A DNA stretch of 10,212 nt, taken from the IMG/VR virus record IMGVR_UViG_2698536672_000013, one strand, 5' to 3'. Origin of the DNA: a virus. Its lineage: Duplodnaviria; Heunggongvirae; Uroviricota; Caudoviricetes. Positions 1 through 10,212 of this stretch are shown here, piece after piece (position 1 is the stretch's first letter; each line of letters begins with the position of its first letter). The translations under genes and the position numbers were made by a program. Below the pieces are notes generated by a model that worked only from the letters and a program-made list of their open reading frames with translations, was not told the origin of the DNA and did not search any database.

Positions 1-486
1 TCATGCTGCCCTTACGATGTAATTAAACGCAATATTACGAGGACGAATGGTTACATAATTAACCCCATCACCTCGTGAAGGCCCTGCAAATGAAAAACAG
101 GAAAAGCCTGGTTGGTTAGAAACAATTTGGTCATAGTTATTGATTGAATGACCAGACCCAATGTCGAAATTACCTCCGTATTGAGAAAAACTTGTACCAT
201 CCTGTTCTGAAAGCAGGGTACGTCCCGCATCAATCCCGCGCCCATCATCCCAGCCACGAATAAACTCACCGCGTAAATCCAGCAGTTTCCCTGACGGGTA
301 TGCTTTGGCAAGGTTGGGATATTTCACTTTATCAAAGGCAGCACCATTGCATTTCAGCCAGCCGGTCGGCGGAGTAGTAGAAGGCCACGGAATCGGTACA
401 CCAACAGGCAATGCAGAGCCTTTCCCCAAACCAACGTTTTCGTCTTTATCCCTACCTATACCAACTATGTATTTTTCACGAAACAA
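1..486 (-). CDS. Phage tail fibre protein, variable C-terminal cassette; partial (continues past the left window edge) and apparently silent in this orientation
   Basis: The minus-strand frame is open from 486 to 1. The translation carries the tail-fibre junction motif shared by P2 H, Mu S, P1 S and lambda Stf (PVGVPIPWP...PTGWLKCNGAAF...YPNLAKAY...LDLRGEFIRGWDDGRGID). The frame opens with TTG, not ATG, has no Shine-Dalgarno, and begins right at the gix-like site, as expected for a cassette expressed only after fusion to a constant N-terminal part. Confidence 0.6.
   Translation of the reverse strand: MFREKYIVGIGRDKDENVGLGKGSALPVGVPIPWPSTTPPTGWLKCNGAAFDKVKYPNLAKAYPSGKLLDLRGEFIRGWDDGRGIDAGRTLLSEQDGTSFSQYGGNFDIGSGHSINNYDQIVSNQPGFSCFSFAGPSRGDGVNYVTIRPRNIAFNYIVRAA
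421..446. other. Candidate Gin/Hin-family inversion crossover site (gix/hix/cix-like, 26 bp)
   Basis: TTTCCCCAAACC-AA-CGTTTTCGTCTT: an imperfect dyad with the AAACC NN GTTT core typical of gix/hix sites as I recall them. It lies about 55 bp upstream of the invertase start and inside the tail-fibre reading frame, as in Mu G, P1 C and e14 P. The left half matches my remembered consensus well, the right half poorly. Confidence 0.45.
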
Positions 487-500
487 AGAGGATGTTTTTT

Positions 501-1100
501 ATGCAAATTGGCTATATTCGTGTGTCAACAAATGACCAGAACACGGATTTACAACGCAATGCACTGAACTGCGCAGGATGTGAACTGATTTTTGAAGATA
601 AAATCAGCGGAACGAAATCAGCCAGACCGGGATTGAAAAAACTGCTCAGAACGCTATCAGAAGGAGATACGCTGGTTGTCTGGAAGCTGGACAGACTGGG
701 CAGAAGTATGAAACACCTGATCACGCTTATTGAGGAATTGCGGGAAAAAGGTGTTAATTTCCGTAGTCTGACGGACAGCATTGACACATCAACACCCATG
801 GGGCGTTTCTTTTTTCACGTCATGGGGGCTTTAGCCGAAATGGAACGTGAATTAATTGTAGAGCGTACACTGGCCGGGCTGGCAGCAGCACGCGCACAAG
901 GACGCATTGGCGGACGTCGCCCGAAGTTGACAAAAGAACAACACGAGCAAATAGCGAGGCTGATTAAAAACGGTCATGACAGGAAACAACTGGCGATCAT
1001 TTACGACATCGGCATATCGACGATTTATCGTTATCACCCTGTAGGCGATATACAGGCTGAAGAAACAACCAGGCAGACTCAGGAAAATGAAAACCGCTAA
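501..1100 (+). CDS. Serine-recombinase DNA invertase (Gin/Hin/Pin/Cin family)
   Basis: The N-terminus MQIGYIRVSTNDQNTDLQ contains the catalytic serine motif. Further family hallmarks are LVVWKLDRLGRS, FFHVMGALAEMERELI.ERT and a C-terminal helix-turn-helix (KQLAIIYDIGISTIYRY). ATG 501 is preceded by AAGAGGA at 486-492. The ORF-track start at 411 is an in-frame upstream extension without an RBS. Confidence 0.93.
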   Translation: MQIGYIRVSTNDQNTDLQRNALNCAGCELIFEDKISGTKSARPGLKKLLRTLSEGDTLVVWKLDRLGRSMKHLITLIEELREKGVNFRSLTDSIDTSTPMGRFFFHVMGALAEMERELIVERTLAGLAAARAQGRIGGRRPKLTKEQHEQIARLIKNGHDRKQLAIIYDIGISTIYRYHPVGDIQAEETTRQTQENENR

Positions 1101-1126
1101 TCTGACCATTAGCGGTTTTGCGTTAA

Positions 1127-1621
1127 TCAAAACAGCCCTTTAACGGAGCTGGCCGCGCTGTTAAGGGATGATGTGACCTTATCTTTGAAGCCGGACAGCA
1201 TATCACTGAACGATGAGGATTGCAGGCGCTCCCGCAAATCCTCATCACAGCGTTCAAGAGTCAGTGAAAATTCTATCTTTTTCGCCTTACCGTAGCGATC
1301 AAACTCGGAGCGGGTCGTATTCGTTCCGGTCAGGACATACATGCCGTAAATCTGCCCGACACCATCAATCAGAGGCCAGGGGCGTCCTGTATATGCCTGC
1401 GTGGTCAGCAACGAAAGCGACACTTCGCCACCTGTAATTTCAGGATAAAGCACACCAGAAAGAACGATGCGATCATCGCCTGCCCCGATATACTGCCAGC
1501 TTGCTGAACGGTTAACGCGTTCATTTTTCACATGCCGCCAGCTTTTGTTTTGCTGTAACTGCTGATGCGGCAACGTGCGCAGCTCAAAAACAAACATGCC
1601 ATAGATCATCATCATGGCCAT
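1127..1621 (-). CDS. U: P2 gpU-like tail protein
   Basis: 164 aa. The N-terminus (M)MMIYGMFVFELRTLPHQQLQ...WRH resembles P2 gpU as I remember it. It sits immediately downstream of the tape-measure gene, with GAGGAG just upstream. Several Met codons (1621, 1615, 1612) could be the true start. Confidence 0.8.
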   Translation of the reverse strand: MAMMMIYGMFVFELRTLPHQQLQQNKSWRHVKNERVNRSASWQYIGAGDDRIVLSGVLYPEITGGEVSLSLLTTQAYTGRPWPLIDGVGQIYGMYVLTGTNTTRSEFDRYGKAKKIEFSLTLERCDEDLRERLQSSSFSDMLSGFKDKVTSSLNSAASSVKGLF

Positions 1622-1627
1622 GACTCC

Positions 1628-4444
1628 TCAATCTTTATCGTAAAAACTGCCACGCCCGGCACGGGCGCGCCGTTCCATCTCTGCCCTGACCATTTCACCG
1701 ACCAGTTTCGCCAGTTCGCGGGGATTCTGTGTAACAACGTTATGCAGATGAACATGAATTTCACCACCAAATCCGGAGGCAACAGGCTCCCGGTTACGGG
1801 AAGTTACAGGAACTGATGCCACTGGAGATCGTATGGCCTCCGCCACCGGGCGGGAGCTGGCCGCAACAACAGGGACCAGCGCCGGAGGCAGCGGAGCCGG
1901 GACCACGGGTGTGATATTAATTGCGGGGGCAGGCTTACTGGCCTGCGCAATCTTCCGCTCCTGCCACTCCCCACGAACAGCAAGTGCTCGGGGCAGGTTT
2001 TTAAAGACAATATCGCCGGGGCCAATGCGTTTTTTCGTCTCCTCAACCAGCTTACCTGTGTTATCAGCAATTTTGCTGAGTCTGCGTAGCGTCCCGGTAT
2101 TGCTGTCTGTGAGCGGTTTGTTGTCTTTGGGTTTATCACCTCCGGTGCCATTGCCATTTTCCACAGGCTTCGGCGGATTGATTTTCGCCAGGTCCCCTTG
2201 AAGTAAGGCAACCTTGTCCTGAAGAATGGCCGCACGCTGTGCGTCTTCGATTTTCTTTCTCGCCCTTTCCGCTTCATCCGGAAGCACACCGAGTTTTTCA
2301 AGTATCCACGCCAGCGTATCCAGTAGCATTTTTGCAGGTGTCAGAACAAGTTGTAACGCACCGCCAAGAACGTTACCGAATATCTCGCCAGCACTGGTAC
2401 ATTTATCCAGCGTTTCCTTGCTGGACTCCATCGGTGACAGCAGCGATTTAAACCAGTTAAACACCTGGCTGATCCCGCTTCCGATTGCGTCAAAAACAGG
2501 GCCAAACCGTTCAAAGGTTTCACGCAACGGGTTCAGCCTTTCCATAATCCCGCTGAACACCCCGGCAAAAAATGCCCTGATGGGATCCCAGTATTTCCAG
2601 ATAAGAACGGCAGCGCCGGCAAGCGCAGCCACGATAAGACTAACCGGACTGAACAGCGCCCCGATAGCTCCTCCCAGCAAAGAAACAGAACCCGTCACCA
2701 TTCCCCACAGCGCAGGCAACACCCTGATGACATTCATTGACCGGGTAAGAATGTCGAAACCAAGACGCAAGGTGGCCAGCTTCCCGTAAAGCACCCCAAT
2801 AACCAGCGACAACGAGCCAATCGTTGCAGTCATTGCCAGCAACGCACCGCCTGCTATCAGTAGCTGGCGCGTCAGTACCGGATGGGCCTGCGCCAGCGAG
2901 GTGATTTTTTCAAGCACCCGCGTGAGCCACTGCGTGACAGAACGCAGCGGACCGTCAACCAGATCACTGATGCGAATACGAAGACCTTCCCATGCGCTGT
3001 CGAGATTTTTCAGGTCTCCATCAAGATTATCGGCCATTACTTTTGCAACGCGATCGGCCTCTCCCCTTGCCCCCTGCAATTCTCTGGTCAGTTTTTGCAG
3101 TTCTCCTGAACCAGCCGCCGCAACAAGCGTCTGCAAACCAACGAACGCCTCTTCTCCGGCGATGTCCTTGAAGAAGGAGACCTGGTCCACCTGTCCGTAT
3201 TTTTGTGTCGCCTTATAGAGATCAAGCAGCACATCCTCCATCGGGCGCATTTTGCCTCTGGCGTCAGCAACTGACACCCCCAGCTCTTTCAGTGCATCAG
3301 CCGCAGCTTTTGGCGGTGATGCAAGGCGGGACAGACTTGCGCGCATGGCCGTACCAGCATCGCTTCCGCGAAGACCATTATTGGCAAGCATCCCGGCCAT
3401 GGCCGCCGCTTCTTCAAGACTGATACCAAGTTTTGCGGCAACCGGACCGGTATACTTCATGGTTTCGCCCAGCGCGCGTAAATCAGTATTGGTCCGGGTG
3501 AATGCTGCTGTCAGCGTATCGCCAACCCGGTCCATTTGATCGGCTGTCAGGTTGAACTGTGTGAGGATATTGGAGCCTATATCAGCCGTCTCGCCGAGTT
3601 CGACGCCACCTGCCAGCGCCATATTAAGAACACCGGGCAATGCGGCCTGAATGGCCTGCGGAGTAAAACCAGCCATTGCCAGAAAGCTCTGCCCACTGGC
3701 GGCATCACTCGCAGTAAACTGTGTTTCAGAACCAAGTTTTAACGCCTGCTCACGCAGCGCCTTAAACTGCGGGCTGTTTTTGTCGATTCGCGTCAGTGCC
3801 TGAACGCGGGACATCTCTTTGCCGAACCCGATCGCAGGCTGCAAAAAACGCCCGGCAGCATAGCCGCCAGCCGCTGCCGCACCAATTGCCAGCGCACCAC
3901 CTGTTTTCAGTTTTCCCGCGGTTTCCTGCGCGCGCGAATACCGCTCACGCGCCCGCGTTACACGCGCAAGCGCCTGCCGTTCGCGTTCAAGCTGGTTGTT
4001 GTACTGTTCGGTGCGTCTGATGGCCTGCTGGATGGTGTTATCGCTGCCTGTCAGGGAAATGCCGTGGCGTTTCAGCTCTCCGCCAAGTTCCCGCATTTTC
4101 TGAATTTCCCGTGTGCGCGATTCATTCAGGCGTTCAAGCCGGGTGCTTAACTGCTGCATCAGCTTTTGTTGTTTTTCGCTGAGCACTGTACCCGTGCGTT
4201 GTAACTGATTAAGGGCGTTAAGCTGGCGTCGTGCTTTCACGATGCCCGCATCCGCTTTACTGACAGCGTCACGGGCGCGCTCAAATGAACGCGCCTGACG
4301 CTCGAGATTTTTGATCGCCCCCTGCGTTCGCTGGATGGAGTCACCAAACTGCCCCATCAGGCGGCGGGCGTTTTCGGCAGGCCGGGTCAGCCTGTCAACG
4401 GCGCTGAAAGCGACCCGGATATCAAGAGTCTTCATTGTCTGCAT
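1628..4444 (-). CDS. T: Phage tail tape-measure protein (P2 gpT-like)
   Basis: 938 aa. The N-terminal half is Ala/Arg/Gln/Leu-rich and looks coiled-coil; the middle has long hydrophobic Gly/Ala-rich stretches (LLIAGGALLAMTATIGSLSLVIGVL...). Its position after E/E' and before U matches the conserved order. Confidence 0.88.
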   Translation of the reverse strand: MQTMKTLDIRVAFSAVDRLTRPAENARRLMGQFGDSIQRTQGAIKNLERQARSFERARDAVSKADAGIVKARRQLNALNQLQRTGTVLSEKQQKLMQQLSTRLERLNESRTREIQKMRELGGELKRHGISLTGSDNTIQQAIRRTEQYNNQLERERQALARVTRARERYSRAQETAGKLKTGGALAIGAAAAGGYAAGRFLQPAIGFGKEMSRVQALTRIDKNSPQFKALREQALKLGSETQFTASDAASGQSFLAMAGFTPQAIQAALPGVLNMALAGGVELGETADIGSNILTQFNLTADQMDRVGDTLTAAFTRTNTDLRALGETMKYTGPVAAKLGISLEEAAAMAGMLANNGLRGSDAGTAMRASLSRLASPPKAAADALKELGVSVADARGKMRPMEDVLLDLYKATQKYGQVDQVSFFKDIAGEEAFVGLQTLVAAAGSGELQKLTRELQGARGEADRVAKVMADNLDGDLKNLDSAWEGLRIRISDLVDGPLRSVTQWLTRVLEKITSLAQAHPVLTRQLLIAGGALLAMTATIGSLSLVIGVLYGKLATLRLGFDILTRSMNVIRVLPALWGMVTGSVSLLGGAIGALFSPVSLIVAALAGAAVLIWKYWDPIRAFFAGVFSGIMERLNPLRETFERFGPVFDAIGSGISQVFNWFKSLLSPMESSKETLDKCTSAGEIFGNVLGGALQLVLTPAKMLLDTLAWILEKLGVLPDEAERARKKIEDAQRAAILQDKVALLQGDLAKINPPKPVENGNGTGGDKPKDNKPLTDSNTGTLRRLSKIADNTGKLVEETKKRIGPGDIVFKNLPRALAVRGEWQERKIAQASKPAPAINITPVVPAPLPPALVPVVAASSRPVAEAIRSPVASVPVTSRNREPVASGFGGEIHVHLHNVVTQNPRELAKLVGEMVRAEMERRARAGRGSFYDKD

Positions 4445-4960
4445 TCCCGCTGCGAAGTGCCGCCCGCTCGCGCCAGCTAACCACTTCGCCGGGCGTCATC
4501 ATGAAGATTTCGGCGGGCGACCAGTTAAAAATGGCGGCAATATCCGCCACCAGATCTTCGATGTGCTCAAAGCACACCAGGGTGATTACGCTGCCGTCTC
4601 CTGCACGCTCTTCGCGCCAGAGTCTGGCTCGCTCATAAAATTTACAGCCACAGCGCACAACTGAATAAAATCGCGTGACGACATTTTTTTAATCATCACT
4701 TCATCCAGTCGTGGCGAGGTCACGCGAGGCAACAGCGTGAACATGGTATCCGCTTTCAGATTCAGCACATCAGACAGAGACAGACCACGCAGGGATCCAG
4801 CCTGTTCAATAGCCCCGGTGATCTCCACATATGTGATTTTTTCGGCACCACGCTCAATTGGCCGGGAAAGTTTTACACCACGTTCGACAGCCATATCCTC
4901 ACCTGACGTCACATCATCCGCTACGGTGTTATTCCGGGTTTCAGTATCGATATCTTTCAT
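4422..4960 (-). CDS. E+E' tail assembly chaperone made by programmed -1 ribosomal frameshift (E N-terminus joined to the E' frame)
   Basis: The E frame contains ATT AAA AAA ATG (A7 run at 4684-4690, minus-strand sense). The -1 frame is open from 4688 to a stop at 4422-4424 and overlaps the T start. This matches the conserved frameshift in the chaperone pair upstream of the tape-measure gene (lambda G/GT, P2 E/E'). Confidence 0.5.
4586..4960 (-). CDS. E: Tail assembly chaperone (P2 gpE-like)
   Basis: 124 aa, acidic, located between the tube and tape-measure genes. AAGGAG lies 7 nt upstream of ATG 4960. Confidence 0.8.
   Translation of the reverse strand: MKDIDTETRNNTVADDVTSGEDMAVERGVKLSRPIERGAEKITYVEITGAIEQAGSLRGLSLSDVLNLKADTMFTLLPRVTSPRLDEVMIKKMSSRDFIQLCAVAVNFMSEPDSGAKSVQETAA
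4684..4690 (-). other. Candidate slippery site (A7) for the E/E' -1 frameshift
   Basis: Seven consecutive A on the coding (minus) strand, at the point where the -1 frame becomes open, directly after a TAA in that frame. Confidence 0.45.
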
Positions 4961-5015
4961 CAGTTGTCTCCTTTTCAGTCAGAGGCGACGCACTGCGCCG
5001 CCTGCATATTACTTA

Positions 5016-5528
5016 TCAGCCAAGCCCAAGCGCGGAACGAATGCGGTCAGGCACAATGTCCTTGCCGTCCTTCCGGTAGATGTGGTTCAACAGGTCGATT
5101 TCCCACAGCGGGCGATCGTTAACGCTCAGCTTGTAGTAGGTGTTTTTGACAGCGTAAGTGTGTGATGTGGCTTCGCCCTGTTTGGCCTCCCCCATATCAA
5201 TTTCCGTCACACGCCCGCGCATCTCGATTTCATACAGATCGCTTTCTGCATCGGTGTAGTATTCACCCGCAAAACGCAGCAGCGTGCCGTCAATCGTGCC
5301 GCCATATTTAAGGAACAGCGCACGAACAGCTCCCCCCATGACAAAACTCGCATCAAGCGCGGAGTCGTCCAGACCGAGATCAATACTTACCGCCCCCATC
5401 ATGCCACCACCACGATAGCTGTCGGTTTTGCGCGTCAGTTTGGGTGGCGTGACGGACGTCACCTTACCCACTTCGTTTTCACCATCCACAAACAGCGTAA
5501 AAAAGCGAAGATGTTTTGGTACAGCCAT
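5016..5528 (-). CDS. FII: Contractile tail tube protein (P2 FII-like)
   Basis: 170 aa. MAVPKHLRFF...SVTPPKLTRKTDSYRGGGMMG...LRFAGEY...EIEMRGRVTEIDMGEAKQGE resembles P2 FII. The start overlaps the FI stop (TGATG). Confidence 0.9.
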   Translation of the reverse strand: MAVPKHLRFFTLFVDGENEVGKVTSVTPPKLTRKTDSYRGGGMMGAVSIDLGLDDSALDASFVMGGAVRALFLKYGGTIDGTLLRFAGEYYTDAESDLYEIEMRGRVTEIDMGEAKQGEATSHTYAVKNTYYKLSVNDRPLWEIDLLNHIYRKDGKDIVPDRIRSALGLG

Positions 5529-6712
5529 CAGGCACCTCCCAGCACCGCAAATGCGGGACCAAAGAATTCATCAGTAAACGACTGGTAAAGCTCCATGTCT
5601 TCCAGCGGCGGAACGGGCGTATATTTGTAGCGAATACGCACACGCCCCTGACGTAAATTCATGGTGCTGTTATCCACGATGTCATACCAGCACTCCGCGC
5701 CAATCAGTTTCCCGGCAGTAACCAGTGAATCCAGTTTTGCCCTGATGGCACTGATAACATCCTTCACGTTCGCAGGCGTCAGTGGACTGTCGATGGTTTC
5801 AAACTGCGCTTCCGCAATTGAATCAGCCAGCACCTGTGCGGTTCGGGTATACACCTCAAAGATGTAGGCGTTCGTTTCCGGTGTGCGGTTGCCCCAGAAG
5901 CGGAGCCCGTTGCGACGAATAATGGTCGTGATTTCTTTGTTGTTGAGGCTGTTGGCATCGCTGTCTTCGGCCTGCAACGACCAGAACACATGCCTGGACA
6001 TCCCCAGCACATTTTTAACCGGAACGTTGGACAGTGATTTGTGCCATCCCTGCTCATGGTCAATGTACGCACGAAGGCCGCACGCATAGGCAGGCGCGGG
6101 GAACGTTTCGTTTTTGCCACTTTTCGGGTTGTAGGCGATGAAGTCAGGCCATAAGAGCATCACCTCACGTTCGTTGAATTTCTGGCGGTAGGTAATCGCC
6201 TCAGCCATCGTGTTACAACCATGACATGCGGCATACACAAACGCGCGCAGTTTACCCGCAATCACGCACAGGGATTTTGTCACCGCCTCCGTGTCCAGCT
6301 CCGGCGCGGCCAGAATACGCGGACGGTATCCGATGCTTTCATCCTGCTCTGCAACAAGCAGCGCATACATCCCCGTATAGCTGCCGTCAGATTCAGAACC
6401 ACCGATAACCAGTTGATCCTGCGTCTTTCCGTTTTCTTCTTTGTGTTCAGCCACGCGAACGACGATCACCTTTGTGCTCACCTGGTCTGCGATGGCCTTA
6501 AGCGCACGATAAAGCGTCCCCGTTGTCCCGCATTTTCCCAGCACGTCATTGACGCGGGTCAGCAGTGTGGGCTTGTTCAGCGGGAACAGCTTCGCGTCCG
6601 CATCATCCGCCGTTGCCACGATACCGATAACGCTGGAATCAACATCGTTAATCGCTGTTACCAGGTCGGTACTTTCCGTAACACGGGCACCATGAAAACG
6701 AGTTTCACTCAT
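5528..6712 (-). CDS. FI: Contractile tail sheath protein (P2 FI-like)
   Basis: 394 aa. The N-terminus (...ATADDADAKLFPLNKPTLLTRVNDV...GTLYRALKAIADQ) and the length match P2 FI as I remember it. AAGGGG lies 8 nt upstream of ATG 6712. Confidence 0.92.
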   Translation of the reverse strand: MSETRFHGARVTESTDLVTAINDVDSSVIGIVATADDADAKLFPLNKPTLLTRVNDVLGKCGTTGTLYRALKAIADQVSTKVIVVRVAEHKEENGKTQDQLVIGGSESDGSYTGMYALLVAEQDESIGYRPRILAAPELDTEAVTKSLCVIAGKLRAFVYAACHGCNTMAEAITYRQKFNEREVMLLWPDFIAYNPKSGKNETFPAPAYACGLRAYIDHEQGWHKSLSNVPVKNVLGMSRHVFWSLQAEDSDANSLNNKEITTIIRRNGLRFWGNRTPETNAYIFEVYTRTAQVLADSIAEAQFETIDSPLTPANVKDVISAIRAKLDSLVTAGKLIGAECWYDIVDNSTMNLRQGRVRIRYKYTPVPPLEDMELYQSFTDEFFGPAFAVLGGA

Positions 6713-6869
6713 AGCTTCAGCCCCTTGTATCCGTTAAATGATTCGGCAACAATCATCACCCACCACGCGCGTAATCTCACCCCTGCGCCGTTCTCCCGCC
6801 ACGGCGACAACAAAAAGCAGTAACCCCCTCCGCACGCACATGCGACCATGCCGCACAGGGAGGGAGCAG

Positions 6870-7979
6870 ATGACCGACACCACCATGCAATTGCTCAGTC
6901 AGGGCACAGACCCCGTAAAAATGCCGGATTTTGATATTCTCGCGGAGGGTAAAACGCTGTCAGGCGTGGCAGAGCGCCTGATGAGCCTGTCACTGACCGA
7001 CAACCGGGGATTTGACGCGGACCAGCTCACCATCACGCTGGATGATGCGGATGGTCAGTTGCAGCTACCGCCACGGGGCGCGCGCCTGACGGTTCTCATT
7101 GGCTGGAAAGGAGAACCGCTGACAGAAAAAGGCACTTACATTGTTGATGAAATCGCTCACGAAGGACCGCCGGACAGGCTGACTGTTTCAGCCAGAAGCG
7201 CAGATTTTCGGGATGAATTTAACGTTAAACGTGAGGTGTCCTGGCATGATGTGACCGTTGAGCGTGTGGTATCCGCCATCGCTCATCGGTACGGTCTGAA
7301 ACCGCAAATCAGCGAAATGCTGATGGATATCGAAATCGACCACGCCGACCAGACCGAAGAAAGCGACATGTCCTTTCTTACGCGCATGGCGGAAATGCTG
7401 GGCGCAATCACCACGGTAAAAAGCGGTAATCTGTTATTCATTATGCCAGGCGGTGGCGTGAACGCACAGGGCCAGCCGTTGCCCTCGTTCGCCATCACGC
7501 GCGGCAGTGGCGATCGCCATCAGTTCCGCATTGCTGACCGCGAAGCGTATACGGGGGTACGCGCTTACTGGCTTGATCTTAATTACGGGAAAAAGAAAAA
7601 AGTCAGCGTGAAACGCCGTAAACCGCCAAAACCCAAAAAGGAGAAAAGCAGCAGCCGTGAAGGTGATTATATGGAAGGCGCGGAAGGCAATGTGTTTGTG
7701 TTACGCAAGACTTATCAGAACGAGCAGGCAGCAAGACGCGCAGCGGCGGCAAAGTGGCAGCAGCTACAACGCGGAGCCGCATCATTCTCCATCACGCTGG
7801 CATGTGGTCGTGCAGAACTCTACCCCGAAATGCATGGCACGGTAACAGGATTTAAAAGCGAGATTGATAATCAGGACTGGATTATTGCAAAAGCCGAGCA
7901 CACCATCGATAACAGCGGCTTTACCACGCAGCTTGAGCTTGAGGCAAAAATCCCGGAATGGATAGCAGAAACAGAGTGA
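6870..7979 (+). CDS. D: P2 gpD-like tail protein (late gene D)
   Basis: LSLTDNRGFDADQL, SARSADFR, SWHD, FLTRMAE, a Lys/Pro-rich linker (KKKKVSVKRRKPPKPKKEK) and the C-terminal block FSITLACGRAELYPE...GFTTQLELE match the gpD pattern. GGGAGGGAG precedes ATG 6870. The ORF-track start at 6738 is an unlikely upstream extension; ATG 6885 is an alternative start. Confidence 0.85.
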   Translation: MTDTTMQLLSQGTDPVKMPDFDILAEGKTLSGVAERLMSLSLTDNRGFDADQLTITLDDADGQLQLPPRGARLTVLIGWKGEPLTEKGTYIVDEIAHEGPPDRLTVSARSADFRDEFNVKREVSWHDVTVERVVSAIAHRYGLKPQISEMLMDIEIDHADQTEESDMSFLTRMAEMLGAITTVKSGNLLFIMPGGGVNAQGQPLPSFAITRGSGDRHQFRIADREAYTGVRAYWLDLNYGKKKKVSVKRRKPPKPKKEKSSSREGDYMEGAEGNVFVLRKTYQNEQAARRAAAAKWQQLQRGAASFSITLACGRAELYPEMHGTVTGFKSEIDNQDWIIAKAEHTIDNSGFTTQLELEAKIPEWIAETE

Positions 7980-8021
7980 GCAACTTAGAATAGCAGCAGC
8001 ACCACGTTAAGGGAGGTCGCT

Positions 8022-8282
8022 ATGTTCCGTTGTCCGCTTTGTGGCGCATCTGCCCGTATCCGCACCAGTCGTCCGGAAAATGATTCAAACACCGTGCGGC
8101 AAAAGTATTACCAGTGTAACAACCTGGAATGCGGCGTATGCTTCTCAACACTGGAAGCTTTCCATAAATTCACATCAAAACACACCTCCGGCGTTCACTC
8201 TTCAGAAGGTATCCCGTGGCATGAGCTGCCAGCTTCACACAGGGGAAACAATCAGATGAGTTTGCCTTTACCTCAGAATTAA
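8022..8282 (+). CDS. ogr: Ogr/Delta-family zinc-finger late transcription activator
   Basis: MFRCPLCGASARIRTSR...YYQCNNLECG gives the C-x2-C...C-x4-C pattern and N-terminal similarity to P2 Ogr (MFHCPLC...). AAGGGAGG precedes ATG 8022. At 86 aa it is longer than P2 Ogr (72 aa). Confidence 0.88.
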   Translation: MFRCPLCGASARIRTSRPENDSNTVRQKYYQCNNLECGVCFSTLEAFHKFTSKHTSGVHSSEGIPWHELPASHRGNNQMSLPLPQN

Positions 8283-8473
8283 CAGGCAGAATTGCCGGAG
8301 TAACAAAAAAGCGATAGATTACGCGCGGGTGCCTTTCGGCTGATGGTCGGAGGGAATACCCGAAGGCCAGATGTGGAAAGGCCCCGGAAAACATTTCTGT
8401 TTAACCGAGGCCCTAACATATCTACCTTAAGCAAGTGATAGGTTAGCGCCTCTCCAACAAAGGAGCAAGCGCT

Positions 8474-8614
8474 ATGTCGCAAAAATCGCTTACGGCCATC
8501 ACGTTCTGCGTGACGGTAATCCTCATCATCTGGATGCTACACGGTTCGCTGTGTGAAATACGGATGAGCTTCTGGGGAGCGGAGTTTGCGGCGTTCTTAC
8601 AGTGTAAGCAGTAA
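8474..8614 (+). CDS. Hok/Gef-family type I toxin (small membrane peptide), 46 aa
   Basis: Translation MSQKSLTAITFCVTVILIIWMLHGSLCEIRMSFWGAEFAAFLQCKQ: an N-terminal hydrophobic helix followed by the SLCE(I/L) and AAFL.C motifs seen in HokA-like peptides. AAGGAG lies 9 nt upstream of the ATG. It is absent from the ORF track only because it is shorter than 60 aa. Confidence 0.65.
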   Translation: MSQKSLTAITFCVTVILIIWMLHGSLCEIRMSFWGAEFAAFLQCKQ

Positions 8615-8708
8615 GGAAACCGCGACGGGGAAGGCAACTTCCCCGTCAATCGGTTGCCAGGGTAAAGGTCGAAAAGGCACCCTATTTCCAGTTGACGTGA
8701 ACAACAAG

Positions 8709-8740
8709 CCCGCAGCGTAAAAACTGCGGGTTTTCTTTTT
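8709..8740 (+). terminator. Rho-independent terminator, probable 3' end of the hok-like transcript
   Basis: A 7 bp GC-rich stem (CCCGCAG / CTGCGGG) with an 8 nt loop, followed by TTTTCTTTTT. Confidence 0.55.
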
Positions 8741-8764
8741 GGTTCCCTCACTCATGAGGACACC

Positions 8765-8804
8765 AAAAAACAAAGCCCACAGCATAGAAGCTGTGGGCTT
8801 TTTG
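8765..8804. terminator. Bidirectional hairpin terminator
   Basis: A perfect 11 bp stem (AAGCCCACAGC / GCTGTGGGCTT) with a 6 nt loop, flanked by an A-run upstream and a T-run downstream. Confidence 0.5.

Positions 8805-8919: not shown

Positions 8920-10212
<1,293 letters not shown>

Follow-up and report, generated by a model that had tools for sequence, protein, structure and literature searches.

The late operons of phage P2 depend on the activator Ogr and on a TGT-N12-ACA dyad (PMC3931495). In the canonical F operon the tail genes and D are co-directional from the late promoter pF, and we verified on NC_001895 that FI-FII-E-E'-T-U-D-ogr occupy a single strand in this order, as an earlier reading of the present locus (the sequence-only reading) had assumed. 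In pF, a distance of 82.5 nt separates the dyad from the FI ATG; counted from the dyad centre, the hexamer GAAAAT ends at 48.5 nt and transcription is annotated to start at +57.5. In the same record a single activator site is annotated for both pO and pP, midway between the two divergent late operons, with -10 elements about 48 nt and starts about 55 nt to each side (annotated at -56 and +55). A different order of the tail genes can be seen in the annotations of four phages of the genus Xuanwuvirus (Peduoviridae), P88, P884B11, 500465-2 and Citrobacter phiSM, in which an invertase is followed by a reversed U-to-sheath block and then by D and ogr. Among isolated phages, this order is visible in the annotated records of P88, phiSM, SEN4/5 and a fragment of KSP20; it is not discussed in the papers on P88, the SEN phages, the C. 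rodentium prophage, Serratia PP4 or the Xenorhabdus tailocin.

We analysed a stretch of 10,212 nt (the window) with an ORF map and a Pfam scan (Table 1). The window encodes a complete P2-type contractile tail set, comprising FI, FII, E with a frameshifted E', T, U and D (all assigned by Pfam except E, for which tblastn was used), and an Ogr/Delta zinc-finger late activator gene 3' of D. As judged from the sequence, a -1 frameshift on the minus strand at 4643-4637 (AAATTTT) would extend E into E', and E' is annotated as 'GpE family' in E. coli. All eight genes, those of the P2 F operon and ogr, are thus present in the same internal order and with the same E/E' frameshift, at 31-49% protein identity, but FI to U are reversed relative to D and ogr, which leaves D outside the pF operon. 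The opposite strands described in the sequence-only reading were confirmed, the minus strand carrying U, T, E/E', FII and FI (1127-6712) and the plus strand D and ogr (6870-8282), with a spacer of 157 bp between FI and D; the strong ribosome binding site that it had ascribed to D was also found, as the Shine-Dalgarno sequence GGGAGGGAG directly 5' of the ATG at 6870. No Rfam family reached its gathering score anywhere in the window.

Table 1. Features of the window, with positions counted from its first nucleotide.
Feature	Position	Strand	Basis or remark
Tail-fibre C-terminal segment, fragment, alternative (silent)	1-486	-	Pfam Collar domain 2.4e-11
Invertase	501-1100	+	Pfam Resolvase 2.4e-51 and HTH_7; start ATG at 501
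Bidirectional intrinsic terminator hairpin	1090-1119	both	Terminator scan; common to invertase and FI-U operon
gpU tail protein	1127-1621	-	Pfam Phage_P2_GpU 1.5e-38
gpT tape measure	1628-4444	-	Pfam PhageMin_Tail 1.6e-56
E' extension of tail chaperone	4422-4643	-	Sequence reading; slippery heptamer AAATTTT
gpE tail assembly chaperone	4586-4960	-	tblastn to P2-family E; between FII and T
gpFII tail tube	5016-5528	-	Pfam Phage_tube 2.1e-45
gpFI tail sheath	5528-6712	-	Pfam sheath domains
Divergent control region, putative bidirectional Ogr-dependent late promoter (pF leftward, pD rightward)	6713-6869		
pF -10-like hexamer GATGAT	6752-6757	-	Last T 48.5 nt from dyad centre
Predicted Ogr-type dyad TCT-N12-ACA	6792-6809		Centre 6800.5
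Putative pD extended -10-like element TGcGACCAT	6841-6849	+	Last T 48.5 nt from dyad centre
gpD baseplate hub / late control D	6870-7979	+	Pfam Phage_GPD 3e-17
TAGAAT, -10-like hexamer of putative ogr promoter	7986-7991	+	
ogr, zinc-finger late activator	8022-8282	+	Pfam Ogr_Delta 5e-14
Hok/Gef-type ORF	8474-8614	+	Between ogr and prophage end
serS, complete	8920-10212	-	

Positions 507-8690 are collinear with P88, P884B11, 500465-2 and phiSM at 92-94% nucleotide identity, and the D protein is 98% identical to that of P88. The gene order is identical to that of Xuanwuvirus, including the invertase, the reversed FI-U block, the 157-bp spacer, D, ogr and the hok-type gene, although protein identity drops to only about 87% in the fibre/invertase region. 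Over the roughly 8.2 kb of prophage that it holds, the window thus appears to be the right end of a P88-like (Peduoviridae, Xuanwuvirus) prophage beside serS. The PGAP annotation of one E. coli chromosome has the same order, beside serS-rarA-lolA. Of 5426 complete E. coli genomes, 623 match the window collinearly over at least 80% of its length, and 1358, about a quarter, carry the FI-spacer-D junction (621 nt) intact. Within the tail block of two Escherichia phage records, 520873 and 503458, we noticed IS100/IS21-family elements, which suggests that these records represent defective prophages.

Among genomes with a D alignment, one being taken for each bacterial species, we examined the best 80 of 433 matches. 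The divergent layout was present in 62 of these best 80 loci, distributed over more than 25 genera of Enterobacterales (Salmonella, Citrobacter, Klebsiella, Raoultella, Enterobacter, Kosakonia, Serratia, Erwinia, Pantoea, Pectobacterium, Brenneria, Edwardsiella, Xenorhabdus, Photorhabdus, Providencia, Morganella, Hafnia, Yersinia and others); within the same best 80, every locus whose D is at least 61% identical to that of the window carried the reversed block (62/62), and every locus with D at most 53% identical had the P2 order (18/18). Mapping of all genes, together with tblastn searches of phage records for D and FI, also revealed divergent FI and D genes in the Klebsiella phages Kp4848-1 (Reipivirus) and Kp4871-3 (Reginaelenavirus), in Salmonella SEN4/5 (Senquatrovirus) and in Serratia KSP20, which resemble the window in the reversed block, the length of the spacer and its dyad but differ in having no invertase, in a protein identity of 55-74% and in their hosts. 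In the window itself the starts of FI and D face each other across about 150 bp of spacer, and its D is at least 61% identical to members of this group. In neighbour-joining trees, built with no support values, for D, which lies outside the block, and for FI, which lies within it, 66 divergent loci formed one clade, no P2-order locus fell inside this clade in either tree, and the outgroups (P2, 186-type, Felsduovirus SEN8, phiCTX, Ralstonia RsoM1USA and a Mannheimia phage) all had the P2 order. We conclude that the gene order is real but ordinary, being the normal layout of a large, sequenced and ICTV-classified P2-related group. The sequence-only reading had noted that the arrangement would be unremarkable if a divergent order proved common in a described family, and the synteny comparison found this to be the case: as the common, conserved order of a described phage group, it is not an anomaly.

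Three observations were made in passing among these loci. A P88-like tail region, 97% identical to the window and with about 1.4 kb extra between D and ogr, lies on a 226-kb contig of the Firmicute assembly 'Vagococcus sp. WN89Y' (NZ_JBQPOM010000071.1), where it is most likely enterobacterial contamination of the assembly. Symbiopectobacterium purcellii MEX carries three divergent-layout tail regions in one genome (L014, L015 and L019), in the last of which FI is disrupted by an insertion of about 1 kb. The Xenorhabdus tailocin paper describes a variable fibre region that adjoins the tail sheath gene, suggesting the P2 order for xenorhabdicin; three Xenorhabdus loci (L071, L075 and L088) have the P2 order, and we do not equate them with the xnp1 tailocin locus.

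Because the layout is monophyletic in both trees and all outgroups have the P2 order, we consider it very likely that it arose by a single ancient inversion of the FI-U block in a P2-order ancestor and has been fixed in this large clade since, a view that we hold jointly with the promoter model described below. The simplest reading is an in-place inversion in the ancestor of the clade, stable ever since. Both proposals of the sequence-only reading, that a single FI-U inversion would give the layout and that the arrangement might be a stable lineage-specific one, are borne out, the former by monophyly and P2-order outgroups and the latter by fixation in a monophyletic clade. The ancestral order that it postulated, fibre-invertase-FI...U-D-ogr, exists as a living layout in SEN8, which has fibre, alternative fibre, invertase, FI...U and D, with the block co-directional with D and a D protein about 53% identical to that of the window; the invertase, however, is not a necessary part of this ancestor, most members of the clade being without one.

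A possible alternative is that another P2-family phage supplied the sheath-to-U module, together with its promoter, and that this module was inserted the other way round. Mosaicism is well known among P2-like phages, H and G are clearly recombinant here (G is 95% identical to P2), and the sister of the clade is the Mannheimia phage in the FI tree but an enteric P2-order group in the D tree. This conflict, however, is one of unsupported neighbour-joining topology at about 45-50% identity, and P88 has diverged from P2 about equally within the block (U 46, FII 42 and FI 46% identity) and outside it (V 47, W 44, J 54, D 49 and int 46%), which makes the acquisition of a foreign module improbable compared with inversion in place.

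Active flipping of the FI-U block by the adjoining serine invertase, in which case the window would display one of two states, is brought to mind by the invertase gene that abuts the block and by the capacity of this family (Hin/Gin/Cin type) to flip adjacent DNA, yet several lines of evidence make it very unlikely. The usual substrate of the enzyme, the fibre module, lies on its opposite side, and we looked for inverted repeats at the two junctions of the block and found none, in agreement with the earlier claim that no such repeat joins them. The other orientation occurred in none of the 66 clade loci, and the junction is contiguous in 98.9% of the E. coli genomes with any match to it (15 genomes have no contiguous copy). 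Moreover, the reversed block is found without any invertase in most members of the clade, SEN5 and the Klebsiella phages included. An invertible segment spanning FI to U was rejected on the lack of crossover repeats and on the single orientation seen in the 66 loci and the 1358 E. coli genomes. Finally, it might be supposed that this single sequence was misassembled or had recently been rearranged in its strain only; nothing speaks for this beyond the difference from P2, its probability is negligible, and it was rejected as an artefact, given that the identical order recurs in independently sequenced particles (P88, phiSM, SEN4/5 and KSP20) and in hundreds of complete genomes.

Where an invertase is present in the clade, it always lies between the fibre module and the U end of the block, and P2-order relatives such as SEN8 have it at the equivalent place, upstream of FI; in SEN5, the fibre assembly gene G directly adjoins U. 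We regard the invertase as a sporadic neighbour that belongs to the fibre-switching module and has no demonstrable part in the inversion. The fragment at 1-486 is part of this invertible fibre module, outside the inverted tail block, and the annotations of P88 and E. coli show inverted fibre and assembly genes in this region. Just 5' of the invertase, the sequence TTTCCCCAAACCAACGTTTTCGTCTTT (419-446) appears similar to a crossover site of the Gin/Cin/Hin type. The invertase and the FI-U operon converge across a gap of 26 bp, and the hairpin that they share as a terminator folds with a dG of -16.9 kcal/mol on the plus strand and -15.8 kcal/mol on the minus strand (z -5.4 and -3.3, respectively).

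We then turned to the spacer between FI and D. The exact pattern TGT-N12-ACA has a single match in the window, at 468-485, outside the spacer and next to the 419-446 site, which is at the level of chance. With one mismatch allowed, a dyad emerged in the spacer, its centre 88.5 and 69.5 nt from the ATG codons of FI and D, respectively, with the half-site TCT instead of TGT as in many lineages, and it was then validated by comparison across lineages. Six lineages, including Xuanwuvirus, Kp4848-1, Kp4871-3, SEN5 and KSP20, have spacers of 147-157 bp, in each of which a T(G/C)T-N12-ACA dyad lies 81.5-88.5 nt away from the ATG of FI, as in P2. Across the clade, 63 of 68 spacers have the dyad where it is expected, centred 74.5-88.5 nt from the start codon of FI, and its N12 varies freely; in the other five the pattern used detected no dyad in this zone. 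Anchoring 31 non-redundant spacers on the dyad centre, ungapped, revealed conserved blocks on both sides, recovered in 31-32 non-redundant lineages of the clade: GAnnAT, ending at -48.5, on the FI side and TGn-aAnnAT, spanning +40.5 to +48.5, on the D side (31 lineages each). The sequence features of a P2-type late promoter, a TGT-N12-ACA dyad centred about 55 nt 5' of the start with a -10 element but lacking a good -35, are present with one mismatch (TCT), in a geometry identical to that of P2 pF and pP/pO. A generic sigma-70 scan called no promoter in the spacer, as is expected for activator-dependent promoters. In 15 P2-order loci that have the dyad, the -10 element is found on the FI side only, and no D-side counterpart is conserved.

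The dyad is therefore a candidate activator site for two divergent promoters, pF and pD. The geometry of the dyad and its -10 elements, together with the FI-side-only -10 of the P2-order relatives, suggests that pF moved together with the block and that a mirror-image -10 arose on the opposite side. Specifically, the inversion would have carried the Ogr-dependent pF along, as its position indicates, and placed the symmetric Ogr-binding dyad beside D; a mirror-image -10 would then have evolved 48.5 nt on the other side of the dyad, allowing one dyad to drive two divergent late promoters, pF leftward into FI-U and the new pD rightward into D, with read-through from D transcribing ogr. Both starts would lie about 55 nt from the dyad centre, like those at the shared pP/pO site of P2. 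Points against this model are the TCT half-site, the five clade spacers in which no dyad was detected in the expected zone and the leader of only about 14 nt that a pD start at +55 would leave D. With moderate confidence, we propose that the inversion turned the one-way pF into a second bidirectional late promoter, pF/pD, as a shared derived character of a clade spanning at least four ICTV genera. If so, D-ogr would have been uncoupled from the 5.6-kb tail transcript and the design of pP/pO copied; the candidate promoter differs from pP/pO in its location, which is between the tail genes FI and D, a site occupied in P2 by a one-way promoter.

As in P2, where a promoter is annotated at the same place before ogr, a TAnAAT/TATAAT-like hexamer is kept about 30-35 nt 5' of ogr in most lineages of the clade. 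An Ogr-independent promoter retained by ogr in this way would start the circuit.

The terminase-scaffold (P-O) spacer of P88 (L090 14152-14305, 154 bp) also contains one such dyad. There it is followed by ACAACAAAAG, nearly the same flank as that of the FI-D dyad, and on one side of this spacer the -10 is preceded by a CGCGCGCG box, which is also found upstream of the putative pD -10 in most lineages.

We found no published description of a bidirectional pF/pD promoter with a shared dyad, and this putative promoter, as a regulatory accommodation of the inversion, is the only part of the locus that would be mildly new. The FI-D junction provides a clean marker that separates the clade from P2, 186 and Fels-2-type prophages in Enterobacterales. 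The spacer would be a natural example of how a symmetric activator site can make an inversion tolerable, with only a new -10 being required, and it would offer a compact bidirectional Ogr-inducible promoter for the engineering of P2-type phages or tailocins.

At the right end of the prophage, similarity stops at about 8685-8747, depending on the phage compared. The window copy differs from P88 in adjoining serS and in that the published 14-mer attP of P88, for which we searched, is absent from the window. The segment directly ahead of serS contains an inverted repeat (8728-8750/8755-8777) and a pair of similar terminator hairpins (8706-8733 and 8772-8801). An Rfam search for an antisense RNA of the Hok/Gef-type toxin gene gave no match at the gathering score. 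The region around this gene (8306-8657) has a counterpart in many Stx2a-converting phages, at about 85% identity.
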